Assembly (NCBI GenBank): GCA_016710785.1
Contig: JADJUE010000013.1
Span: forward strand, 43,007-107,006
DNA from: Candidatus Epilinea brevis
GTDB taxonomy: Bacteria; Chloroflexota; Anaerolineae; Epilineales; Epilineaceae
Length of the DNA stretch: 64,000 nt
Direction of reading: 5' to 3'
Shown here in pieces: positions 1,012 to 35,830 of this stretch (positions within the stretch are counted from its first letter, which is position 1; each line of letters starts with the position of its first letter). Made by a program: the position numbers and the translations under genes. The notes beneath the pieces are model-generated. The model was not told where the DNA came from, searched no databases, and saw nothing but the letters and a program-made list of their open reading frames with translations.

Positions 1012-1060
1012 GCCCTGCCCACCCGCGGTCCTGACGACCGCGACCGCCGCACGCGATCCA

Positions 1061-1092
1061 GGCCCCCGCCGGCAACGGCGGGGGCCTTTTGC
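1061..1092 (+). terminator. Rho-independent terminator after the 148-1011 gene
   Basis: Stem GGCCCCCGCCG, loop GCAA, stem CGGCGGGGGCC, followed by TTTTGC. Confidence 0.5.
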
Positions 1093-1104
1093 GATGGTCC
1101 CGTA

Positions 1105-1275
1105 GGGGCGGGTTTGCGGCACGATCGAGAACCCCACGGCCGCCCGGCTGGTAAACCCGCCCTGCCGGTTTGCGCGCAACGGTCGGGACGGTGGGGGTTT
1201 CCGGGCGGTGTACGACAGGGCGGGTTTGCCGGTCGGGACGGTGGGGGTTTCCGGTGGTGGTTCAAACCCGCCCCT
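1105..1275. repeat. Structured repeat region upstream of the exosortase gene
   Basis: There are two copies of GGGCGGGTTTGC (1106-1117, 1218-1229), each partnered by the inverted copy AAACCCGCCC (1153-1162, 1264-1273). A 25-nt direct repeat CGGTCGGGACGGTGGGGGTTTCCGG occurs at 1180-1204 and 1230-1254. Confidence 0.5.
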
Positions 1276-1293
1276 ACGGGCTATCATCCGCCG

Positions 1294-2838
1294 ATGGCAT
1301 TCCGTCTGTTTGTCGGCCGGCGACCAGGGCCGACCGCCGCCTTGGCCAACCTCGCCATCTGGGGCCTGTGGCTCTGGCTCTTCCGTTCCGTCCTCGCGCA
1401 TCTGGGCAAGATCTACGCGCGTCAGGACATGAGCGTCAGCTTGGTCGCCTTGATCGGGATCCTGGGGCTCCTGGCCTGGCGCGCCCGCGGTCGCCGGCCA
1501 TCGTTCGCCGACTGGGCTCGCGCCCCTCGGCCGCGGCCGGCGCCGGCGCTCTTGGCCCTGGGCGCGGCCCTAGCCTACCTGGGTGTGGCCCGCTTCCTGG
1601 ACATCCACATCCTGGAGGACGCCCTGTTCGCCTTGGGCAGCTATGGCCTGGCCGGCCTGTGGGTGGCTCCTTCCGCCTGGCGCCGAGGCTGGCCGGTGCT
1701 GCTGCTGCTGGTGGCCACCCTGCCTTTCGGCTACCACCTGGACACCTTCGTGGGCTATCCGCTGCGGCTGTGGACGGCGGGGGCCGCCGCGACGATCCTC
1801 GGCGGGCGGGTGCCGGCGGGCGGCGGTGCGGAGGCCATCCTGCTCTTGGAGAACCAGGTGGCCGCGGTGGACCTGGCCTGCAGCGGGGTCAAGGGCTTGT
1901 GGACGGGGTCCCTGTTGCTCCTGGCCGCCGCCTGGCTGAGCGGCGCCGGCCTCGGTTGGCGCCTGGTGCTGGCCGCTGCCGTGCAGAACCTGCTCCTGAT
2001 CCTGGCCAACCTGCTGCGGGTGACCGTGCTGGCCGAGGTGGGCCTGGGCCTGGGGCAGCCCGTCGTCGCCGGCTGGCTGCACCTGCCGCTGGGCGTCCTG
2101 GGCTTCGCCGCGGCGGCATTGGTGGGTCTGCGCTGCCTGCGCGGGCCGGGCACCGCGCGGGCGGTGGACGGCGACAGATGGAAGACTGGTCCGTCCGAGC
2201 CCTACGCCATGCCGGACCGCCTGTCGGTGACCGCCGCCATCCTGCTCGCCCTGCTGCTGCTGAACCTTGCCTACCGCCCGCGCCCTCCTATACTCGCTCG
2301 CGCCGCCGCGAGCGGTGGCGGGACGGCCTCGCCCTGGGTCTGGCCGGCAACGCTGGCGGTGAAGGCCCTGCCCCTCAAGCCGTCGGACGCGGCCTGGCTG
2401 GCCGCCGACGGCGCCGATGCCGTGGAGCGCGTGCGCTTCCGGCATGGGGAGCTGCGGGGATCGCTGATCCTGGTGCGCGCTGGCACCTGGCGGGCCCACC
2501 ACGCGCCCGAGCGCTGCTTCGAGGTCTACGGCCTGAAGCAGCTGGACAGCAGTCCGGTGGTCCTCGAGGGCGGCGGCGGCCTGCGCCAGGTCACCCTGGG
2601 CGGCGCCGACGGCCGACCCAGCCATGGCGCGCTCTATTGGTTCCAGAGCGCTAGCGGACGGATGACGGGCGACTACGCGGCGCGGATCTGGGCCGACCTG
2701 CCGCCGCATCGGGAACCTTGGGTGCTGGCCTCAGTTCTCTTTGACGGACCCGTCGATGCCGAGGGTCCGGCGACAACCGATCTGGTCAACGCATTGCGCC
2801 GCGCCATCGACGCGGGCTGGAAAGGATCGACCCCATGA
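1294..2838 (+). CDS. Exosortase family protein with a C-terminal EpsI-like domain (fusion)
   Basis: The N-terminal region is a polytopic membrane domain. It carries the exosortase signature segments VDLACSGVKGLW (active-site Cys in the CSG motif) and ANLLRVTVLAEV (Asn/Arg motif). The ~200-aa soluble C-terminal domain resembles EpsI. The stop overlaps the next start (ATGA at 2835-2838). The upstream M at 1114 lies in the repeat region, so ATG 1294 (MAFRLF) was chosen. Confidence 0.7.
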   Translation: MAFRLFVGRRPGPTAALANLAIWGLWLWLFRSVLAHLGKIYARQDMSVSLVALIGILGLLAWRARGRRPSFADWARAPRPRPAPALLALGAALAYLGVARFLDIHILEDALFALGSYGLAGLWVAPSAWRRGWPVLLLLVATLPFGYHLDTFVGYPLRLWTAGAAATILGGRVPAGGGAEAILLLENQVAAVDLACSGVKGLWTGSLLLLAAAWLSGAGLGWRLVLAAAVQNLLLILANLLRVTVLAEVGLGLGQPVVAGWLHLPLGVLGFAAAALVGLRCLRGPGTARAVDGDRWKTGPSEPYAMPDRLSVTAAILLALLLLNLAYRPRPPILARAAASGGGTASPWVWPATLAVKALPLKPSDAAWLAADGADAVERVRFRHGELRGSLILVRAGTWRAHHAPERCFEVYGLKQLDSSPVVLEGGGGLRQVTLGGADGRPSHGALYWFQSASGRMTGDYAARIWADLPPHREPWVLASVLFDGPVDAEGPATTDLVNALRRAIDAGWKGSTP

Positions 2839-5800
2839 TCAAGCGCAGACTTCCCGGCCGCTCGTGGATCGGCTGGGACCCCCTGGGTGCGGGCCTCTTC
2901 TGGACCTGGAACCTGATCTTCGTGGCCTTCATGCTGCTGGGCTTCGGCCCGGCCCTGCTGCCGGAACTGCTGCGCACGGCCGGCCAGGGTGACGTGCCCT
3001 GGACCTTCGTCGGCCTGATCGCGGTTCTGACGGCCGTCCCGCTGGTTGCCCTGCTCCTGGGCTACTGGCGGCTGCGCGGCGACGGGCGGGGGCTCTTCGC
3101 CCTGGGCTTTGCCGTGGAAGGTCCGCTCATGGGCCTTCTGGCCCTGCGCGTCTTCGGCTTTCGCGAGGCCAACCCGGCGATGGCCCTGCTGCTGGCCCTG
3201 ATGTTCCTCGGCCTATCTACCTACCTATGGCAGCTGCTTGACCCGGGCATCGCCGCGCGGGGACGGGAGGCGCAACTGGCCCGCTGGACGGGCCTTTGCC
3301 TGTTGGCTTTGGCCGGCGTCTACGCCGCGGTCTGGGCGGCCTTCTACCTGCCGCCCTTCGGGCTGAAGATGGTGGAGGTGGCGCGCGACACCCTGGCCCA
3401 TCCGCTGGAGGCATTGCGGAACTACTGGAACGACCTCTGGCACGAAGGCTGGTCGCAGGTGCTGTTCGGGCTGCTCCTGCCGCCGACCGCGATCTTGACC
3501 GCCGTCCTGGTGTTTGCCCTGCCGGTCCTGTCCGTCGGGCATTGGCTGGCCGCATGGCGGCGAGCGGGCCGGGACCTGGCGGCGCGCTTCGGGCGGCGGC
3601 AGACCGCGGCCTTGGGCCTGGGGACGGCGGTCGCCGCGGTGTTGGCGCTGGTGCTGGCGTCGCGGCAGCCGCAGGCCGGGGCCTTCGCCGCCTTGGAGCG
3701 GCCGCCGGCGGACACCGTGGAAACGCAGGCCCTGCTCGAGCGCTCGGGCGCCATTCGCGAGGGCTTGCTCAACGCCTACCTGGCGGGCCAACGCTATCGG
3801 AGCGCCCGGGGTGAGGTGGGCCATATCCATCATGTCTACTGGGCGATGTCCTTCGGCGGACGCAAGCTGATCAGCGACGAAGCGGCCAGGCAGGTGCAGG
3901 CCGCCTACGAGCTCGTGGCCGGCCCCATGTACTACCAGCCGGCGCAGGCTCCGGCAGCCTACGGAACCCCTGGCAAGGCGTCCCAAAAAATGGCGGTGCT
4001 GCAGTCAGACCCTCGCCGCGCCGCCGAACTCTACCAGGATTTCTTCGACGCCCCCATCGACCTGGCCGAGCGGGAGACCATCCTGCGCACGGTCTCGGCC
4101 AACTGGAACCTGCAGCAGGCGTCGCTGGACCGCCTGGCCATCGATGACCGCGAGGTGCTCGTCAGCCGGCGCGACCTGTCGATCCGCGCCGCGGCCGACG
4201 GCTGGGCCGAGCTGGAGCTGCACGAGGTCTACCAGAACCAGACCACGCAGCAGCAGGAGGTGGTCTATCACTTCAACCTGCCAGAGAGCGCGGCGGTCAG
4301 CGGCCTGTGGCTGGGCGAGACGGAGGACCGCGCGCAGGCGGCGGCCTTTCGCGTGGCCCCACGCGGCGCCGCGCAGCAAGTCTACAAGGAAGAACGGGCG
4401 CGTCGCGTCGACCCGGCGCTGCTGGAGCAGATAGGACCACGGCAGTACCGCCTGCGCGTCTTACCGGTGCCGGCCCGGACGTGGCGACGTGTCGAAGGAG
4501 AGCGGAACGAACCGATCGCCGGGCCACGTCTGCACCTGTGGATGACCTTCGTGGTGCCGGCGCGGCCTATCCAGGCGGTGGACGGGATCGACGGGGTTGA
4601 CGGGATCGCAGCGGCCGCCGCCGGCGACGCGAACAGTGAGCCGGACGGGCCGCGGGTCTGGCCCCTGCCGCGGCTGGCCGAGCGGCGCAACGCCTACTGG
4701 GACGGGAGCACCGCATGGACCTTGCCGGAGGGCGTCGCGGCGCCGAAAGGGGACGTCTGGCTGCCGGACAACCTGCCGGCCGAGCCCGCCGCCGCCGCCC
4801 GCTCGCCAGAGGGCGTCACCATGGGTTATGGCGCCTGGCGCGTGGAGGCGCGACCCGCCGCGTCAGCGGCCGCGGACGGTGACCTTCCGCGGCCGCGCCG
4901 GCTGGCGGTGCTCGTCGATCGCTCCCGCAGCATGGCGGGGCGGCGCGCCGAGCTGGACGCGGCGCTGGCCCAGCTGTCGGCCGCGGCGTCGCCGGGCTCC
5001 GTCGATGTCATCCTCAGCAGCGCCGCGCCGCGGGGCGAGCCGGCGTCGCGCGTCGCCCTGGCTGCGCTGCGCCCGGAGCAGCTCCTGGCCTTCGGCGGCC
5101 AGGATCCAGCGGAACTGCTGCGCCAGCTGCGTGACCTGGATCCCGACGGAGGCCATGACGCTGTCCTGGTGCTGACCGATGACAGCCCCTACCTGCTCGG
5201 CGCCGCGAACACCTCGACGACTGCCTCCTGGCGCGGCGGACCCCTGTGGCTGGTGCACCTGGGCGACCGCCTGCCTCAGGGTTACGACGATGGAACCCTG
5301 GACGCCGTCCTTGCCTCCGGCGGCGGGGTGGCCGGGTCGGTGGCCGAGGCCCTGCGGCGCTGGGGGCTGCGGCAGCGCGCGGACGCGGCGGGGGACCTGC
5401 TGGATCAGGTCGACGGCTGGACCTTCATGGTCGACCGGGCGGCCGGAGCGCCGGCGGATGCCGGGCCGAGCACGCCGCTCCGCAAGGCCGCCGCCCGCCA
5501 GCTGATCCTCGCCCAGATCCGCGCCGCCGGCAACGCCGAGGTCGACAACGCCGAACGCGACCGGCTGCAGGCCCTGGCCAAGGCCGAGGGCGTCGTCAGC
5601 CCCTTCTCCTCGATGATCGTCCTGATCGATGAACGGCAGCGGCAGCGCCTGGACGCGCTGGAAGCGGATCAGGACCGTTTCGAGCGCGAGAACGATGGGG
5701 CCGCGGACGAGCCGGCCCTGCTGGCGGTCACGGCCGTGCCGGAGCCGGAGACCTGGATGCTGCTGCTGCTGGCGGCGGGCTTGCTTTGGTGGCAGCGGCG

Positions 5801-5849
5801 GCTGGTGGTCGGGGGGCTGGAGACCGGTCGGCTGGGGCGGCGGGGATGA
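2835..5849 (+). CDS. PEP-CTERM sorting-signal protein with an N-terminal polytopic membrane region, a VIT-like domain and a vWA domain (probable exosortase cargo)
   Basis: The C-terminus VPEPETWMLLLLAAGLLWWQRRL has the PEP motif, a TM helix and an Arg cluster. The vWA MIDAS-like motif is LAVLVDRSRSMAG, followed by LVLTDD. A VIT-like segment lies upstream (FNLPESAAVSGLWLGETEDRAQAAAFRVAPRG...DPALLEQ...YRLRVLPVP). About 250 aa of hydrophobic helices sit at the N-terminus. The gene is translationally coupled to the exosortase. Confidence 0.7.
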   Translation: MIKRRLPGRSWIGWDPLGAGLFWTWNLIFVAFMLLGFGPALLPELLRTAGQGDVPWTFVGLIAVLTAVPLVALLLGYWRLRGDGRGLFALGFAVEGPLMGLLALRVFGFREANPAMALLLALMFLGLSTYLWQLLDPGIAARGREAQLARWTGLCLLALAGVYAAVWAAFYLPPFGLKMVEVARDTLAHPLEALRNYWNDLWHEGWSQVLFGLLLPPTAILTAVLVFALPVLSVGHWLAAWRRAGRDLAARFGRRQTAALGLGTAVAAVLALVLASRQPQAGAFAALERPPADTVETQALLERSGAIREGLLNAYLAGQRYRSARGEVGHIHHVYWAMSFGGRKLISDEAARQVQAAYELVAGPMYYQPAQAPAAYGTPGKASQKMAVLQSDPRRAAELYQDFFDAPIDLAERETILRTVSANWNLQQASLDRLAIDDREVLVSRRDLSIRAAADGWAELELHEVYQNQTTQQQEVVYHFNLPESAAVSGLWLGETEDRAQAAAFRVAPRGAAQQVYKEERARRVDPALLEQIGPRQYRLRVLPVPARTWRRVEGERNEPIAGPRLHLWMTFVVPARPIQAVDGIDGVDGIAAAAAGDANSEPDGPRVWPLPRLAERRNAYWDGSTAWTLPEGVAAPKGDVWLPDNLPAEPAAAARSPEGVTMGYGAWRVEARPAASAAADGDLPRPRRLAVLVDRSRSMAGRRAELDAALAQLSAAASPGSVDVILSSAAPRGEPASRVALAALRPEQLLAFGGQDPAELLRQLRDLDPDGGHDAVLVLTDDSPYLLGAANTSTTASWRGGPLWLVHLGDRLPQGYDDGTLDAVLASGGGVAGSVAEALRRWGLRQRADAAGDLLDQVDGWTFMVDRAAGAPADAGPSTPLRKAAARQLILAQIRAAGNAEVDNAERDRLQALAKAEGVVSPFSSMIVLIDERQRQRLDALEADQDRFERENDGAADEPALLAVTAVPEPETWMLLLLAAGLLWWQRRLVVGGLETGRLGRRG

Positions 5850-7270: not shown

Positions 7271-10200
7271 TCAAGGGCATGCCGTCAGCCGCCCGGCGAT
7301 GCCGCGGTAGATGTCGGCCAGGTCCTCGCCGTCGGGGGCGAAGTAGTAGTCGGCGCGGGTCGAAGCCACCGCGCCCAGCAGCTGGTCCAGCACGTCGTCC
7401 GTCTCGCCCAGGCCGATGCTGAAGATCCGCGAGCCCGCGGCCTTGGCCGCCGAAGCCTGCTTCAGCACCGTGCATTCCTGGTTGGGGCATTCCGGGGCGA
7501 TGGACCCCGGCCCGAAGGGCACACGGTTGGGCAGGCCGTCGGTGAGCAGGATCATGACCGGCTGGTTGTTGCCCAGGCGTGGCCCGCGGGCGAGCGCATC
7601 CTGTCCCTGGGCCAAGGACAAATCGATGCGCGTGCCCTGGGCGATGCGCCCCGGCAGGCGGTCGAGGGCCGCCAGCACGGCGCCGCGGTCGCCCGACAGC
7701 CCGATCTCCGTCCAGGCCGCGTCGTTGAAGCCCACGACAGCCACCCGATCCCGGGCGCCGTAGGCGTTGGGCTCCAGCTTCATCTGGGCCACGAAGGCGC
7801 GGGCCGCGTCCAAGGCCGCCGCGTGCTTGCTGCGCCCCCCGCGGGTCTCGCGGTACATGCTCGTCGACATGTCCAGCACAAGTACGGCATCGGTGAAGAC
7901 GCTCTCCGGCCGGCAGAGCAGCCGCTCGGTAAAGGGCAGGTAGATCGCGTAATGCCCGGGCGTGGGCGTGCGGGTCACGGTGGGGGAGGCCGTGGCCGAG
8001 GCCGTGACGGTGGCCGTGGCGCTCGGGCTGCTCGTGGATGTCGACGACGCTGTCGCCGTGGCCGCGGGCACCGTGGGGGTGGGCGTCAGAGCGAAGCAGA
8101 GCGACTCGATGTCCCCCAGGCCCGCCGCCTTGCCGAAGGTCTGGTTGGCGCCGGCGTAGACCGTCTCGCGGGTGACGTCGTAGCCACTGACGTTGTCGTA
8201 CCAGGCCAGACCGCCGCTGTAGATCTGGATCGGGTCGATCACGGTGGACACCACCTGGTCCAGCCAGGGCAGGGAGGCCAGGGTGCCCCAGGAGGACTCG
8301 GCATGCAGGAGGTTGTCCTGATAGAACTCGGGAACGGTCAAGGGCATGTAGCGCTCGCCGGCCTTCATGGTCAAGACCATGTCGCCGCCGGCGGCGATCA
8401 GCACCCGACTGTCGGCCTGGCGATCGCGCAGCCCCAGCACCAGGTCGCCATCCTCCCGGAACTCGATGTCCACCAACATGGGCTGGTCGATGGTCTGTCC
8501 GTCGTCCACGACGCGCGGCCAGGGGTTCCAGACCGGCTGTCGGCCGTAGTCGAGGTCCACGCGCAACACCTCGGTCATCTCGGAGCCGTCCGGCCGGCTG
8601 CGGTAGACATAGGCCGCCAGTGGGCGCGGCGCGGGGTTGTTGGTGGCCTGGGCATCGCGCGTGCGGCTGTCCACCACGCCGTGGAAGAGCCAGCCCTCCT
8701 TCCAGGCCAGGGCGAAGGGGCGGGCGTCTTCGGCCCAGTCCAGGCCGGCCGCGCCGTGGGGAAAGGCGCCTAGCAGCCGCCCGGAGGGCACGGCGAAGCG
8801 ATACACGTAGCCGTCGCTCAGGTTGACGGCGAAGAGCTGGTCGCCGGCGGTGGTCAGCTCCAGGTCGCCCAGGGCGGTGACCCCCACACTGTTGGCCGCG
8901 GCCTGGTCGAAGCCCTGGTTGAAGCGATGGCTGTCGCGGCCGGCCGGCAGCGCGGCCCAGGGCAGCACCGTGCCCCGCGCCAGGTCCACCTGGTAGATGC
9001 CACCCGGGCCCAAGGGCCCGTAACCCGCCAGGCGCTTGGTGTAGGCGCCCAGGTAGATGCGGTCGCGGGTGAGGTCCATGGCGACGCCGAAGACCGCGCC
9101 CACCTGGTCCTGGAAGGCCAGGTTGTGGTGCAGGGCCAGGTCATCGCCCACCGTGTCGTTGAGGGCCACCACCGCGGCCTGCCCCTTCAGCCAGGCCTGG
9201 CCGTAGGCGTTGCCCGAGCCATCCGTCATGGGCACGAACTGGGTGACCGCCAGGTAGGGGTTGCCGCCCTGGCAGCTGTCCTTGACGTGCTGGTAGGCGT
9301 GGGCGTAGGCGGTGGCGGTGGAGGGCGGCGGCGCCGTCGCCTTGGCCGCCGCCGTGCCGATGGCCACCGCAGTGGGCGCCACCAGGGTGAGTTGGCGGGG
9401 CACCTCGACGGCGGCCGTGGCCAAGGCGCGCAGGCGGCCGGCCTCGATGGTCGGCGCTTCGGCGGTCAGGATGGGTTGCAAGGCGGTGGCGGTCTCCGCC
9501 GCCGCCGTGCGCCGGACCTCCTGGGTGGGGGCGTGGGCCGTGCGTGTGGCCACCACCTGGGTGGCCCGCGCGGCGTCGCGGGCGGCAGCGGTGGCCGTGG
9601 CCGCCTGGGCCGCCTCCACGGTCAGGGTGACCAGCACCTCCGGTTCTACCTGGTTGCCCGGATCGCAGAGCACGGCGACGTCGCCGGCGGCCAGTCGGCT
9701 GGGAGCGGCGGCGCCTTCCAGTATCCGGCCGGAGCGCAGGCGCATGCCCGAGCCGGCGTCGAAGCTGTCCAGGGCCAGGGCGGGGCCGGGGTAACCGGGG
9801 TCCGGCGGGCGCGCCGGGGCGACCAGCCAGCCCAGGCCGGGCAGGGGCGCCACGGCGCCCCAGGCCGTCTCCAGGCCGGCGGCGTCGCTGTCCCGGAACC
9901 ATTGCGGGCTGCGTATGAGCTCCCAACCGCTGCCGCCCTCGCGTTCGCGGGCCGGGAGCAGGTCGCCCAGGCTGGCGCCGCCGGGGCAGCCCGGCTGCCA
10001 GACGCAATCCGGATCCAGGTCTACGCGGCGGTCGCGCAGGCCCACCACGGGGAGGCCCGAGGGAAGAAAGGCGATGTCGGCCACCAGCGGCTGGTCGGGC
10101 GAGCTGTTGGCCGCCTCGGTGGTCCAGGGGCCCCAGGGGGCGCCGCGCTGGTAGCTGCTGTCGGTGCCCAGGCCGAAGCGCAGCACCTGGGCCATCTCGG

Positions 10201-10966
10201 CGCCATCGACGCGCGAGCGGTACACGCGGCCTTCCAGCAGGCCGAGGACGCTGTCGTCCTCGCGGCTGTTCACCAGGCCATGGTACAGCCAGTCGCCTTC
10301 GACCCCCAGGCCGAGCATGCGCGCGTCGCGCGACCAGCGCTCGCGCACCGAACCATGGGCGAAGGCGCCCAACACCTGGCCGCTTGGCAGGCTCAGGCGG
10401 TAGACCTTGCCGTCGAAGAGGTTGGCGACGAAGAGTTGGCTGCCGTCCAGGGCCAGGTCCAGATCGCCCAGACCGGTCTTGCCGGCCCAGTCCGGGTTCT
10501 CCGCCGCGCCCGAGCCGTCGGCGGCGGCGTGCCGGTCCGGGCCGGCCGGCAGCTGGGCGAGCAGCGTCACCTGGCCGTCGGCCAGACCTACGCGATACAC
10601 GGCGCCCGGTCCGCCCGGCCCGAAGCGGCCACCGCTGCGATGCCAGGCGCCGGCATAGACAACGCCGCGCCCGCCGTCGTAGGCCAGGCCGTAGATGTCC
10701 CCCAGCTGGGCGCGTCTGGCCAGGCTGGGGGAGCGCTCGCCCAGGGACTGGCGGGCCAACAGCAGGGCGGGTTCCGTTGCCGGCTGGTCCTCGGGCCGCC
10801 AGCCGCCCTGGACGGCGACGGCCACATAGGGGTCGATGCCCTGACAGGCGGCGTTCAGGGCGGCGGCGTCCGGCAGGGGGGCCGGCTGGGCGCGGGTGGC
10901 TCCGTCCAGCAAGGCCAGGGCGAGGAGGGTCGAGGCGGCCGCAAGGCCCAGATGCCGGCTGCGCAT
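7271..10966 (-). CDS. Large secreted protein with an internal ~400-aa duplication, Thr/Pro/Ala-rich linkers and a C-terminal vWA domain
   Basis: The ATG at 10966 (MRSRHLGLAAASTLLALALLDGATRAQP, a signal peptide) is preferred over the TTG at 11005. The two N-terminal repeats each start CQG(I/G)(D/N)PY and share the motifs LGDL(D/E)L...DG.QLF..NL.DG.VYR. The C-terminal vWA domain has DMSTSM and LLTDG. Confidence 0.6.
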   Translation of the reverse strand: MRSRHLGLAAASTLLALALLDGATRAQPAPLPDAAALNAACQGIDPYVAVAVQGGWRPEDQPATEPALLLARQSLGERSPSLARRAQLGDIYGLAYDGGRGVVYAGAWHRSGGRFGPGGPGAVYRVGLADGQVTLLAQLPAGPDRHAAADGSGAAENPDWAGKTGLGDLDLALDGSQLFVANLFDGKVYRLSLPSGQVLGAFAHGSVRERWSRDARMLGLGVEGDWLYHGLVNSREDDSVLGLLEGRVYRSRVDGAEMAQVLRFGLGTDSSYQRGAPWGPWTTEAANSSPDQPLVADIAFLPSGLPVVGLRDRRVDLDPDCVWQPGCPGGASLGDLLPAREREGGSGWELIRSPQWFRDSDAAGLETAWGAVAPLPGLGWLVAPARPPDPGYPGPALALDSFDAGSGMRLRSGRILEGAAAPSRLAAGDVAVLCDPGNQVEPEVLVTLTVEAAQAATATAAARDAARATQVVATRTAHAPTQEVRRTAAAETATALQPILTAEAPTIEAGRLRALATAAVEVPRQLTLVAPTAVAIGTAAAKATAPPPSTATAYAHAYQHVKDSCQGGNPYLAVTQFVPMTDGSGNAYGQAWLKGQAAVVALNDTVGDDLALHHNLAFQDQVGAVFGVAMDLTRDRIYLGAYTKRLAGYGPLGPGGIYQVDLARGTVLPWAALPAGRDSHRFNQGFDQAAANSVGVTALGDLELTTAGDQLFAVNLSDGYVYRFAVPSGRLLGAFPHGAAGLDWAEDARPFALAWKEGWLFHGVVDSRTRDAQATNNPAPRPLAAYVYRSRPDGSEMTEVLRVDLDYGRQPVWNPWPRVVDDGQTIDQPMLVDIEFREDGDLVLGLRDRQADSRVLIAAGGDMVLTMKAGERYMPLTVPEFYQDNLLHAESSWGTLASLPWLDQVVSTVIDPIQIYSGGLAWYDNVSGYDVTRETVYAGANQTFGKAAGLGDIESLCFALTPTPTVPAATATASSTSTSSPSATATVTASATASPTVTRTPTPGHYAIYLPFTERLLCRPESVFTDAVLVLDMSTSMYRETRGGRSKHAAALDAARAFVAQMKLEPNAYGARDRVAVVGFNDAAWTEIGLSGDRGAVLAALDRLPGRIAQGTRIDLSLAQGQDALARGPRLGNNQPVMILLTDGLPNRVPFGPGSIAPECPNQECTVLKQASAAKAAGSRIFSIGLGETDDVLDQLLGAVASTRADYYFAPDGEDLADIYRGIAGRLTACP

Positions 10967-11001
10967 GCGCTGTCCTTTGTTCGCGGCTCGGCGAACCCGG
11001 T

Positions 11002-11406
11002 TCAAACGGGTTGCGGCCAGGTGGCCAGGATGATGCCCACGGTGATGCAGGCCACGGCCAGGATCATGAAGAACAGGTGCAGCAGTCCGGCGTCCTCATC
11101 CGCCAACCCGGGCAAGGCGACCTGCACCTGCGGTCCGAATCGCAGCTGGTGGAAGCGGCGCATGCCGGCCTTGCCGGCCAGCAAGCCGTAGAGTACAGCC
11201 GAGAGGCCCATGAGCGCCGGTGTGCCGCGGAGGCGGTCCGCCCAGACCAGGGCCAGAAAGGGCAGGGCGATACAGAGGAGGGCGCGGCCGGGCTGCAGGC
11301 GCAGCCGTCGGCCGTCGCGCGCCCGTTGCCAGGCCAGGGCGGCGACGGGCAAGGCCGCCAGACAGGCGATGAGCGTCAGGTAGCCGGCTCCGGCGGGAAT
11401 GGTCAT
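11002..11406 (-). CDS. Small integral membrane protein (hypothetical)
   Basis: The 134-aa product has hydrophobic helices. It overlaps the downstream large gene by 4 nt, suggesting an operon. Confidence 0.4.
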   Translation of the reverse strand: MTIPAGAGYLTLIACLAALPVAALAWQRARDGRRLRLQPGRALLCIALPFLALVWADRLRGTPALMGLSAVLYGLLAGKAGMRRFHQLRFGPQVQVALPGLADEDAGLLHLFFMILAVACITVGIILATWPQPV

Positions 11407-27265: not shown

Positions 27266-27434
27266 ACCAGCGCTGGAGCGCTCCGTTCGTCCCTTTGGCC
27301 GCGCTGGTATTGGGGAGAGCCGCTCCCCGTTCGCTTCCGTGCCACCTGATTGGCAGGACGAGCAACGGCCGGATCCAAGGGCGATTCGATGCGCTCCCTG
27401 AATCCGGCCGCGTGACGATGCAGGTCGTCGGTGC

Positions 27435-29565: not shown

Positions 29566-29664
29566 GGCAGAGGGGAGGGGACTGGGGGGCATGGGGGGGA
29601 ATTGTAGACGATCTCGTTCCACGCCTGCCCTGCTATGATCCCTCCCGCCCAGGAGACTAGCCCC

Positions 29665-32569
29665 ATGTCCGAGCGATCCGCGAAGCCTCCCCTTCTCCTC
29701 CTCGTCGATGGTCATGCCTTGGCCTATCGGGCCTACCATGCCCTGCGCGAACCCATGAGCGCTCCCGATGGCGAGCCTACCGGCGCCACCTTCGGCTTCA
29801 CCAACATGCTTCTGGCCGCGTTGAACACCCATCGCCCCACGCATCTGGCGGTGGCCTTCGACCGTGGCAGGAGTGGGCGGGAGGCGCTGTATCCGCCCTA
29901 CAAGGCCAACCGCGCCGAGCGGCCGCCGGAGCTCGACGTGCAGCTGCAGCGCATCGCAGAAATCGTGGCTGCGTTCAACATCCCCGTTTACACCCTGGAT
30001 GGTTTCGAGGCGGATGACGTGCTGGGTACCTTGACCGCGCAGGCCGAAACGGCGGGGGTGGACAGCCTGGTCATCACCGGGGACAGCGATCTCCTGCAGA
30101 TGGTAGGCCCGCATACGCGCGTGGCGATCAGTGGCCGGCGCATGTCGGAAGTGGAGATCTACGACGCCGCCCGGGTTCGCGAGCGCTATGGTGTCGAACC
30201 GGTCGACCTGGCGGAGTGGAAGGGCCTCAAGGGGGACAGCTCGGACAACATCCTCGGCGTCAGCGGCATCGGCGAAAAGGGTGCAACCGAACTGATCCAA
30301 GCCCATGGAACAGTGGATGGAGTGCTCGCCGCCGCGCCCGGATTCAAGCCCGGACGCCTGCGCGACAACCTGATCGCCCAGGCGGATCAGGCGCGCCTCT
30401 CAGCCCGCCTCTGCCGCATCATGCGCGACCTGCCCGTCACCCTGGATATGGAGCAGGTGGCGCTCACCGGTTATGATCGGGAGGCGGTGTTGGCCATCTT
30501 CCGCCGCTTGTCCTTTCGCAACCTCATGGATCGCTTGCCGGCCCTCGACGCTTCCGCGCCTGGTGACGCCCCGGCCGCTCCGGCGCCGGCCGCGCCGTCG
30601 GGCGACTACCGCCTGGTCGCCGATCTGGCCGAGCTGGAGGACCTGACGGCGACGTGGGCCGCAGCCCCCCGCCTGGCGTTTGACACCGAAACCACCGGCG
30701 TGGACCCCATGCGCGCCCGGCTGGTGGGCATCGCCATCTCGGATGCGGTGGGGCGGGGCTGGTACATCGCGGTGGGCCATGGTGCGACGGCTGCGGAAGG
30801 GGATCCGTCCGCGGCGCCGGCCGCCCATGCGCAGCTGACCATGGACTTCGGCGTCGGCGCGACCGGAGCCGGCGCCGGCGGCGGGGGCCAACGCCACCGA
30901 TCCGCTCGATGGTCCACCTGACGGTGATCCGCCGGCTGCGCTCCCCGATCGCAATCTCCCATGGGCCGAGGTGCTCAGGTTGCTGGGTCCGGTGCTGCAG
31001 GGGCCGGCCATCAAGGTGGCTCACCATGCCAAGTACGATCTGACCGTTCTGCTGCGCGCCGGCCTGCCGGTGTCCGCACCGGTCTTCGACACCCTGGTGG
31101 CAGCCTGGCTGGTGGATCCGGGACGGCGCGGTCTGGGTCTCAAGGACCTGGCCTTTACCGAACTGGGCGTGGAGATGACGCCCATCTCGGCGTTGATCGG
31201 CAAGGGCAAGGGGCAGCGGACGATGGCTGAGGTGGACCCCGTCGATGCGGCGGCCTATGCCGGGGCCGATGTGGACATGACGCTCCGCCTGGCGCATTGG
31301 GCGGCGCCGCACTTGGAAGAACGCGGGGCGCGGGAACTCTTCGAGCAGCTGGAGATGCCCCTGATGTGGGTGCTGGCGGAGATGGAGCGCACCGGCATCC
31401 GCGTGGACGCCGAGGTGCTGGCGGAGATCGCCCGGGACCTCAACGCGCGGGCGGCGGCCCTGGAGGACCAGATCTTCGCGGGCGTTGGGCATCGCTTCAA
31501 CCTGGCTTCTCCCAAGCAGCTCTCAGAGGTGCTGTTCGGCGAGCTGGGCATCCCGCCCACGCGCAAGACGGACACCGGCTTCTCCACCAACGCCGACGCC
31601 CTGGCGGACCTGGCGGCGCAGTACCCCATCATCCAGACCATCCAGGACCACCGGCATGTACGCAAGCTCCTGGGTACCTATGTGGAAGCCCTGCCGCTCA
31701 TGATCAACTACGAGACCCTGCGCATTCACACCAGCTGGCAGCAAACAGGCACCGTGACCGGGCGCCTGTCGTCTACCGAACCCAACCTGCAGAACATTCC
31801 GGTGCGCTCCGAGTTGGGCGGCCAGATCCGCCGGGCCTTCGTGGCGGAGCAGGGCTGGCTGATCCTGGCGGCGGACTACAGTCAGATGGAGTTGCGTATC
31901 CTGGCGGCGCTCTCGGGCGACGAAGCGCTTACGGCCGTCTACGCCGAGGGTGGCGACGTGCACGCCGACACGGCGGCCTACCTGTTCCAGAAAGACCCGT
32001 CGGCAGTGACCGCCAATGAGCGCCGTCTGGCCAAGATCGTCAACTTCGGCATCGTCTACGGCATGGGCGCCTTCGGCCTCTCGCGTTCGACGGGCTGGTC
32101 GCGGTCGGAGTCGGCCGCCTTCATCGACCGCTACTTCACGCGCTACGCGGGGGTCAAGGCCTATTTCGACCGCCAGCTGGCGGACTGCGCCCAGACTGGC
32201 TACGTGTCCACCTTGCTGGGCCGCCGCCGCTACTTCCCGATGCTGCGCGAAGGCTCGGGTGTCGATGCCAACACAAGGGCGCGAATGGAGCGGGAAGCCC
32301 TCAACGCCCCCATTCAGGGTGGGGCCGCAGACATCACCAAACGGGCGATGATCGACTTGTCGGCAGCGCTCAAGGTGGGCGGCTATCGCGCCCGGCTGCT
32401 GCTGCAGGTCCACGATGAACTGTTGCTCGAGGTCCCCCCCGATGAGATCGACGCCGTGGCGGCGCTGACGCGGGCCATCATGACCGGCTGCGTGCCGCTG
32501 CCGGGCGTGTCGCTGGCGGTGGATGTCGCGGTCGGGGTGAACTGGGGGGAGCTGGTGCGGGTGACTTGA
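29665..32569 (+). CDS. polA: DNA polymerase I, interrupted by an apparent +1 frameshift between the Exo I and Exo II motifs
   Basis: AGGAG RBS. The 5'-3' exonuclease part has LLLVDGHALAYRAYHA and GIGEKGA. Exo I is LAFDTETTG. The frame-1 stop is at 30919-30921. The colinear remainder continues in frame 2 from about 30839: Exo II KVAHHAKYD, then RRAFVA, LILAADYSQMELR, KIVNFGIVYG and LLQVHDELLLE. A G5 run at 30883-30887 lies in the 80-bp window where the frames must switch. Confidence 0.8.
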
Positions 32570-33804: not shown

Positions 33805-35553
33805 CTAGCGCCGCGCCACCATCCGATTGCGCCTGAGGCGCGCCGCGAATCCGCCGTCGATCCCGTGACGCTGCGGCAGGCTGCGGTAGAAGCCCCGTTC
33901 ATCCACCAGGTCGGCCGGGATCAGGCCCGCCGCCGACTCCAGGCCGAAGTCCGGATGGCGCTCCAGGAAGGCGTCCACGCGGGCCTCGTTCTCTTCGGGT
34001 TCCAGGCTGCAGGTGCTGTAGACCAGCAGGCCATCCGGGCGCACCAGGGCCGCCGCCGCATCCAGCATGGCGTCCTGCGTCTTGCACAGGGTCGCCAGGT
34101 CGCCAGGTTCCCGGTTCCAGCGTAGGTCCGCACGACGGGCCATCACGCCGGTGCCGCTGCAGGGGGCGTCCAGGAGGACCCGGTCTGCCTGTCTGGCAAG
34201 CGGTTGGCCGGACTCGTCGCGCAACTCGTGCAAGGAGAGCAGGTCCGCCACCGCGCAGCGGACGCTCTTCAGGCCCAGGCGGGCGGCCGCCGCCTCGATC
34301 AGCTTGACCTTGCCGGGATGTACGTCCAGCGCCAGCACCTGGCCACGGTCCTTCATCAGCTCAGCGGCGTAGGTCGCCTTGCCGCCTGGAGCGGCGCAGA
34401 CGTCGATGATCGACTCGCCGCGTTGAGGGTCGAGCACGCGGACCACCAGCGCCGCAGCCTCGTCCTGCACCACGCAGAGCCCGCGGGTGAGAAGGCCCGC
34501 GGCCAGCACCGGTTGCAGGCGCGTCACCCGGATCAGGTCGTCCGGCAGCCAGGTCGAAGGCTCCTGCGGGGCTTCGAGCTCGGCCAGCTCGCCGGCGACA
34601 TCGGCTACTGTCGTGCGCAGTCGGTTCACCCTCAGCCCGTGGCTGGGTCGGGCGTTGTTCCAGTTGAGCAGGGCGGTCAGCTGATCGATGCCGAAGCGGT
34701 CGCGCCAACGCTTCACCAGCCAGCTGGGATGCGAATGGCGGATGGCCAGGTCTTCCAAAGGATCGCCGGTGGCCGGCTGCGGCAGGTCGTCGCGGCGGTT
34801 GTCCAGGTTGCGCAGCACGGCGTTCACCAAGCCCATCGCCTTCTCCGCGCCGACATCCTTGGCCAGGCTCACCGCCGCGTGAACCGCCGCATGGGGCGGC
34901 GTGGAGGCGTAGAGCAGCTCGTAGATCCCGAGGCGCAGTACCTGGCGCGCCCGCTGATCCAGGTTCTCCGGCTGCCCACTGAACGTGGCGTCGATCAGGT
35001 GGTCCAGCCAGCGCCGCCAACGGGTGACCCCCGCCACATAATCCGTCGCCGTGCGCCGCGCGCCGGGCCCGAGGCCGGCGTCCGGCTCCAGACGGGCCAC
35101 GTAGGCCCTGTCCTCTTCGATGCGCCGCAGCGCGGCCAGGGCCCAGGAGCGGGCGTTGAGCGGGCCTTCTACGTGCAGCCGATCGCCGCGAACCGGCTCC
35201 TCGGCGCCCCCTGCCGAACGGGTATCGGCCACCCGCGACCGGTCCCAAGGACGGGCCGTTCCGCGCTCCTCGCCCATGCCGCGGTGGTCGGGCCGATCGC
35301 CCATCGGCCGTCCGGACTGGGGACGATCACCGCTGGGGCCGCGGCGGTCCGGCCGATCGCTCATCGGCCGACCGGACTGGGGACGATCGCCGCCGGGGCC
35401 GCGGCGGTCGGGGCGGTCGCCCGTGGGGCGTCCGGACTGGGGACGATCACCGCTGGGACCGCGGCGGTCGGGGCGGTCGCCCATCGGCCGTCCGGACTGC
35501 GGGCGATCGCCGCCGGGGCCGCGGCGATCGGGACGGTCGGGTCGGTCGCCCAT
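33805..35553 (-). CDS. rsmB: 16S rRNA (cytosine-C5)-methyltransferase RsmB/Sun with a repetitive N-terminal extension
   Basis: NusB-like and Fmu regions are present, with IDVCAAPGGKAT, VLLDAPCSGTGV and STCSLEPEENE. The N-terminus holds GDRPDRRGP.GDRPQSGRPM repeats. The repeat-encoding frame continues upstream to ATG 36179 after a 14-bp tandem duplication at 35584-35611, so the true CDS may be 33805-36179. Confidence 0.75.
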   Translation of the reverse strand: MGDRPDRPDRRGPGGDRPQSGRPMGDRPDRRGPSGDRPQSGRPTGDRPDRRGPGGDRPQSGRPMSDRPDRRGPSGDRPQSGRPMGDRPDHRGMGEERGTARPWDRSRVADTRSAGGAEEPVRGDRLHVEGPLNARSWALAALRRIEEDRAYVARLEPDAGLGPGARRTATDYVAGVTRWRRWLDHLIDATFSGQPENLDQRARQVLRLGIYELLYASTPPHAAVHAAVSLAKDVGAEKAMGLVNAVLRNLDNRRDDLPQPATGDPLEDLAIRHSHPSWLVKRWRDRFGIDQLTALLNWNNARPSHGLRVNRLRTTVADVAGELAELEAPQEPSTWLPDDLIRVTRLQPVLAAGLLTRGLCVVQDEAAALVVRVLDPQRGESIIDVCAAPGGKATYAAELMKDRGQVLALDVHPGKVKLIEAAAARLGLKSVRCAVADLLSLHELRDESGQPLARQADRVLLDAPCSGTGVMARRADLRWNREPGDLATLCKTQDAMLDAAAALVRPDGLLVYSTCSLEPEENEARVDAFLERHPDFGLESAAGLIPADLVDERGFYRSLPQRHGIDGGFAARLRRNRMVARR

Positions 35554-35830
35554 CGGCCGTCCGGACTGCGGGCGATCGCCGCTGGGGCCGCGGCGGTGGG
35601 GCCGCGGCGGTCGGGACGGTCGGGGCGGTCGCCCGTGGGGCGTCCGGACTGGGGACGATCACCGCTGGGACCGCGGCGGTCGGGGCGGTCGGGTCGGTCG
35701 CCCATCGGCCGCCCGGACTGCGGGCGATCGCCGCCGGGACCGCGGCGGTCTGGACGGTCGGGACGGTCGCTCGTCGGTCGTCCGGACTGGGGCCGTTCAC
35801 TACCAGGACCGCGGCGGTCTGGACGGTTGC
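35270..35830. repeat. Coding tandem repeat array (60/66-bp units, ~9 copies) inside the rsmB 5' region
   Basis: Units such as catcggccgtccggactggggacgatcaccgctggggccgcggcggtcgg... recur with a 60-bp period and encode a 20-aa GDRPDRRGPSGDRPQSGRPM-type repeat. Confidence 0.6.

Follow-up and report, generated by a model that had tools for sequence, protein, structure and literature searches.

DNA polymerase I (Pol I, PolA; PRK05755/TIGR00593) is encoded in one open reading frame (ORF), along which four domains (PF02739, PF01367, PF01612 and PF00476) follow one another in a canonical order. In some bacteria, genes for the 5′-nuclease stand separate. Frameshifting in the +1 direction is programmed in prfB (RF2), where an in-frame stop at the slippery codon, an upstream Shine-Dalgarno (SD) sequence and a regulatory logic go together. 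Consensus indels that break gene calls are well documented for Nanopore data (Sereika et al. 2022, PMC9262707), and bins at low coverage need short-read polishing (PMC9262707).

We analyzed a stretch of 64,000 nucleotides from Candidatus Epilinea brevis (contig JADJUE010000013.1), hereafter the window, in which the deposited polA is divided between two reading frames. The following features were identified on the forward strand:

29665-30921, + strand: 5′ piece of polA in frame 1, which encodes the 5′-3′ exonuclease domain and DTETTG (Exo I, of the 3′-5′ exonuclease domain) and, after 14 out-of-frame residues, ends in a TGA; deposited at NCBI as MBK8542025.1 (IPL60_18825, 418 aa, “hypothetical protein”)

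30839-32569, + strand: 3′ piece of polA in frame 2, which encodes what remains of the 3′-5′ exonuclease domain, with KVAHHAKYD (Exo II) and Exo III, followed by the family A polymerase domain; deposited at NCBI as MBK8542026.1 (IPL60_18830, 529 aa, called from TTG 30980)

30790-30952, + strand: GC-rich loop of low complexity, inserted between the Exo I and Exo II motifs, with no counterpart in the Pol I profile or in more distant Anaerolineae

30877-30878, + strand: GG dinucleotide with one G in surplus, GCCGGCGG in the window and GCCGCGG in seven relatives

30883-30887, + strand: run of five G (G5 run), equal in length in the window and in six intact relatives with the same linker allele

Read directly from the window, the frame-1 ORF extends from 29635 to 30921 (+, 428 aa) and is terminated by TGA at 30919-30921. 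After a TGA at 30836-30838, frame 2 stays open from 30839 to 32569, with GTG 30971 as its earliest candidate start codon. The frame-1 ORF matched the Pfam families 5_3_exonuc_N (PF02739) and 5_3_exonuc (PF01367) with E-values of 3e-53 and 4e-24, and the full-length match to DNA_pol_A (PF00476, positions 2-381 of 381, E 2e-140) lies in frame 2. The domain between them, DNA_pol_A_exo1 (PF01612), is itself divided, as frame 1 encodes profile positions 1-58 and frame 2 positions 64-166; accordingly, DTETTG is read in frame 1 and KVAHHAKYD in frame 2, and Exo III was read directly in the window as YAGADVD. Alignment to NCBIfam PRK05755 gave the same picture. Residues 21-385 of the frame-1 ORF cover profile positions 3-357 (E 7e-96), and residues 39-571 of frame 2 continue colinearly over positions 356-887 (E 6e-193). 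The two deposited pieces score 322.6 and 643.9 bits, each below the equivalog cut-off of 720 bits. Both carry the name “hypothetical protein [Ardenticatenia bacterium]” and both lie on one 140,736-bp contig. This is one genuine gene that is split in the deposited sequence, and chance is excluded. The original prediction of one colinear polA with a +1 shift inside 30839-30921 is thus borne out by ORFs, motifs, Pfam and PRK05755 alike.

The window encodes all four Pol I domains colinearly and in canonical order. It also has the Exo I carboxylates (DTE), together with Exo II (KYD), Exo III (Y..AD) and the motifs of the polymerase. As deposited, the gene does not form one ORF; after removal of a single G it does, and the repaired ORF of 967 aa is 99% identical to intact homologues. 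It differs from the described family in the one G that breaks it and in the low-complexity loop of ~45-55 aa that the lineage has inserted between Exo I and Exo II. A second polA, for which the original prediction had recommended a search, was not found within the window, and the answer applies to the window; in a contig scan of the genome collection the best match among those listed showed 62% identity, and this species was not among the matches listed.

Comparison with polA of close relatives had also been proposed beforehand. Six contigs that are 98.5-99.9% identical to the window all carry an uninterrupted polA of 967 aa. Separate samples gave rise to five of them, as short-read or Logan assemblies, and the sixth is a sibling MAG from Nanopore data:

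L001: ENA ERZ23795167, NODE_4864, the contig of homologue P0001, which shares 99.36% identity with the window along 14.3 kb

L002: GCA_016709185.1, JADJNM010000001.1, the sibling MAG, 2.07 Mb, with the intact product MBK7779546.1

L003: ENA ERZ27275293

L004 and L006: two activated-sludge assemblies of PRJEB11413

L005: Logan SRR10932013

Over 30831-30929 every letter of these six contigs equals the window, but for one missing G, and the G at 30877/30878 is the sole polA indel that separates each of them from the window. A seventh relative (L087), which has another linker allele and a polA of 971 aa, reads GCCGGCGCCGCGGC and also lacks the extra G. All seven relatives are intact, and the surplus G is absent from every one of them. 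A protein search with the conceptually repaired polA returned P0001 as the best homologue (967 aa, 99% identity), and the best 120 homologues listed were all single proteins of 910-1035 aa. By exact look-up, no identical in-frame allele of the repaired 967-aa protein was found in the collection. Look-ups of the 418-aa and 529-aa products in the contig index likewise found no other copy, and a single NCBI contig, from an activated-sludge MAG named “Ardenticatenia bacterium”, is the only one recorded with the split products. JGI metagenome contigs searched for either allele with the pattern GGAGCCGGCGCCN{0,1}GCGGCGGGGGCCAACGCC gave 0 matches.

The alignment also localizes the change of frame. 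Frame 1 agrees with the relatives up to ...GVGATGAGA, and frame 2 agrees with them from AAGANATDPLDG... onward. When the G was removed in silico, a stop-free ORF of 967 aa resulted that differs by 2 residues from the protein of a relative (P0128). The surplus G at 30877/30878 is the sole cause of the frame change in polA. The original prediction had hinted at the G5 run, which is contained in GCGGGGGCC at 30881-30889. This hint was not upheld, as the surplus G sits 5-6 nucleotides upstream of the run. Slippage in the run was rejected as the cause since the window and all six intact relatives with the same allele read GGGGG.

The loop in which the extra base lies has a GC content of 76% overall and of 86% in 30850-30900, around the indel. 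It is hypervariable among the relatives, and a co-occurring allele (proteins P0123, P0129 and P0133; contig L087) departs from the allele of the window at the very spot of the indel. In two independent third-party MAGs (GCA_035432785.1 and GCA_035432325.1), gaps of 100 N start just after ATGGACTTCGG, which corresponds to position 30852 of the window; the gaps occupy positions 4188-4287 of contig L088 and 1237-1336 of contig L089, in the polA linker. Because of these gaps, polA of both MAGs was deposited as two “partial” proteins (HQZ70259/60 and HRA20991/90). Short reads therefore demonstrably do not resolve the polA linker.

Several further features of this region were observed in the family. 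In the Chloroflexota lineage (P0001-P0009) the loop is rich in Ala, Gly, Pro and Asp and about 45-55 aa long, being shorter in P0006 and P0007, and two more distant Anaerolineae proteins (P0019 and P0030) are without it. Hypervariable as it is, the loop nonetheless holds a conserved QL(A/T)MDF-like island. Downstream, at 31013-31039, Exo II reads AHHAKYD in the clade, where His replaces the Asn of more distant Anaerolineae (GHNAKYD, AHNGKFD) and the catalytic Asp is kept.

To judge how the extra base came about, the provenance and quality of the assembly have to be considered. In Singleton et al. 2021 (PMC8012365), CANU served to assemble the Nanopore reads, and polishing consisted of Racon, medaka (twice) and then a single Racon round with Illumina reads. 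The supplementary data of that study list JADJNM as EsbW_18-Q3-R4-48_MAXAC.090, midas_s_119, and, within this species cluster, JADJUE from Hirtshals as another MAG, Hirt_18-Q3-R61-65_BATAC.427. From an organism name and a locus-tag style shared with JADJNM and from a neighbouring accession series, the contig of the window very probably belongs to this Nanopore-assembled, Illumina-polished set; its source sample would then be part of BioProject PRJNA629478. The window was aligned with the relatives over 19.66-35.26 kb and 35.9-42.7 kb (~22 kb), and no further coding indel was found there. Three indels remain in the aligned part, all of them intergenic and within 27281-27326. We also screened the window for other frameshifts by examining stop-to-stop ORFs for GC3 and then searching three suspicious pairs of adjacent or overlapping ORFs with Pfam, and found no colinear split families in these three pairs. 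A generally error-ridden assembly was rejected on these grounds, as the ~22 kb hold no other coding indel and the three ORF pairs carry no sign of a frameshift.

The intergenic indels (+T, -G and -CC) lie between the genes for a pyrophosphatase and a META-domain protein and set the window apart from L001 and L003. Exact anchors of 25-mers showed that the offset between the window and L002, the other Nanopore MAG, is constant across 27281-27326. This cluster could be true strain variation or an effect of the common platform. A separate case of length variation was observed in the gene for an RsmB/NusB-domain methyltransferase (33805-35553, - strand). It contains an N-terminal tandem repeat at 35278-35827, which covers part of the gene and sequence upstream, with a period of ~60-69 bp and ~5 copies encoding GDRPDRRGPGGDRPQSGRP-like units. 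The copy number varies between strains, with an ORF of 582 aa here, 490, 499 and 519 aa in relatives and ~657 aa in L088. At the left end of the window (1012-5849 and 7271-11095) lie an exosortase (EpsH) gene and then a gene whose large product combines a VIT domain and a PEP-CTERM sorting signal; an ORF of 1274 codons for a VWA-domain protein on the opposite strand is also found at this end. Together, these genes look like a PEP-CTERM/exosortase surface-protein neighbourhood.

Three causes of the split had been left side by side in the original prediction, namely a sequencing indel, an authentic mutation, and a split or programmed-shift Pol I. We consider it probable that the split is a residual indel of assembly or polishing and that the gene itself is an ordinary single-copy polA. 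In this case, a spurious G at 30877/30878 would have entered the long-read consensus of the Nanopore-assembled MAG. Illumina polishing would then have left it uncorrected, with short reads covering and assembling the GC-rich, low-complexity and strain-variable stretch poorly, and the organism itself would make a normal Pol I of 967 aa. Because short reads do not resolve the linker, an indel of the long reads would survive polishing with Illumina data. In agreement with this reading, a single assembly has the indel and the near-identical genomes have an intact gene; the site is also a hard one, given its 86% GC, the 100-N gaps in two MAGs and the alternative allele that begins there. As the rest of the assembly is well polished, the error would be an isolated one that remained at a hard site; the argument for an artefact is thus based on what kind of site this is and on the uniqueness of the indel, and not on a poor assembly in general.

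The deposited pieces also resemble described cases of gene fragmentation by Nanopore indels (PMC9262707, PMC8012365) in that an indel of one base yields two adjacent calls of “hypothetical protein”, a single assembly is affected and the site is poorly covered by short reads. They differ from the classic case, which is a long homopolymer, whereas here G has become GG within a low-complexity GCC/GGC repeat. This difference weakens the artefact reading, since a change from one to two G is not the classic Nanopore error, and so does the fact that no other coding indel was found in the aligned ~22 kb. On balance, we infer that the extra base originated in the assembly rather than in the cell.

Alternatively, the frameshift could be real, very recent and strain-specific, so that this population would carry polA as a pseudogene or in truncated form. 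A 418-aa protein with an intact 5′-3′ exonuclease would then be made, and the proofreading and polymerase part would be lost or weakly re-initiated. The frameshift is, after all, present in the deposited consensus of an assembly that is otherwise accurate, without coding indels in the remaining overlapping ~22 kb, and the linker is naturally prone to indels between strains, being hypervariable and of low complexity. In addition, the 5′-3′ exonuclease domain has been kept intact. This domain is the part of Pol I that is most often essential, and some bacteria tolerate the loss of the Klenow part as long as it stays. A real frameshift in polA would therefore not necessarily be lethal. However, the frameshift occurs in one assembly only, and seven relatives that are up to 99.9% identical do not have it. 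The downstream frame of 1.7 kb shows no decay, remaining free of stops and with few substitutions relative to the relatives, and the site lies just where sequencing and assembly have been shown to fail. Moreover, by our own a priori estimate, a residual indel in a polished Nanopore MAG of low coverage is likelier than a fixed frameshift in polA. Overall, we regard an authentic frameshift as unlikely, though conceivable.

The last explanation is a functional arrangement, in which either programmed +1 ribosomal frameshifting would give full-length Pol I or an evolved split Pol I would consist of a 5′-nuclease/Exo I protein and a separate Klenow-like protein that restarts at GTG 30971 or TTG 30980. 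GAGG located 8 nucleotides upstream of TTG 30980 is a candidate weak SD sequence, and the break falls within a long, probably disordered loop, so that complementation between fragments is conceivable. However, GAGG and TTG are incidental because the intact relatives have them as the same codons (E-V-L-R-L). The break also separates Exo I from Exo II within the 3′-5′ exonuclease fold and is off any domain boundary, unlike a split Pol I in which the break would fall at the boundary between 5′-nuclease and Klenow part and each part would have start signals of its own. As for a programmed shift, inspection of 30839-30921 revealed no recognizable +1 shift site, neither a CUU UGA as in prfB nor a suitably spaced SD sequence, and frame 1 ends in ...TCC ACC TGA. 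The G5 run is too short to give efficient transcriptional slippage. Similarity to prfB is limited to the direction of the shift (+1); in the window the shift is not conserved, no in-frame stop stands at a slippery codon with an upstream SD sequence, and no regulatory logic is seen. Conservation in orthologues, as expected of a programmed shift, was not found, given that the relatives are in frame and the best 120 homologues listed are single proteins. Each near-identical relative carries one uninterrupted ORF with otherwise equal sequence around the site, so that selection has kept no shift signal. Because the shift is not conserved, programmed frameshifting and an evolved split Pol I are, as far as the comparison of sequences goes, effectively excluded, and we give such an arrangement next to no weight. 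It would be equally far-fetched to assume that the extra G is real and that a strain of activated-sludge Chloroflexota makes a 5′-nuclease/Exo I fragment and a Klenow-like fragment re-initiated at TTG 30980 or GTG 30971, with the two joining up again at the disordered loop in the proofreading domain. Of the causes named in the original prediction, the indel of sequencing or assembly is thus favoured, an authentic mutation is retained as a possibility of low probability, and the seven near-identical relatives with a continuous gene argue strongly against a programmed or split Pol I.

With an assembly or polishing indel as the probable cause, the split of polA is most probably not a true feature of the organism. 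MBK8542025.1 and MBK8542026.1 are best read as a single DNA polymerase I, and the finding serves chiefly as a quality flag. If the frameshift were real, it would represent a minor strain-level truncation of polA that keeps the 5′-nuclease, of a kind already known. The window provides no evidence for an unusual arrangement of replication or repair genes in this organism.
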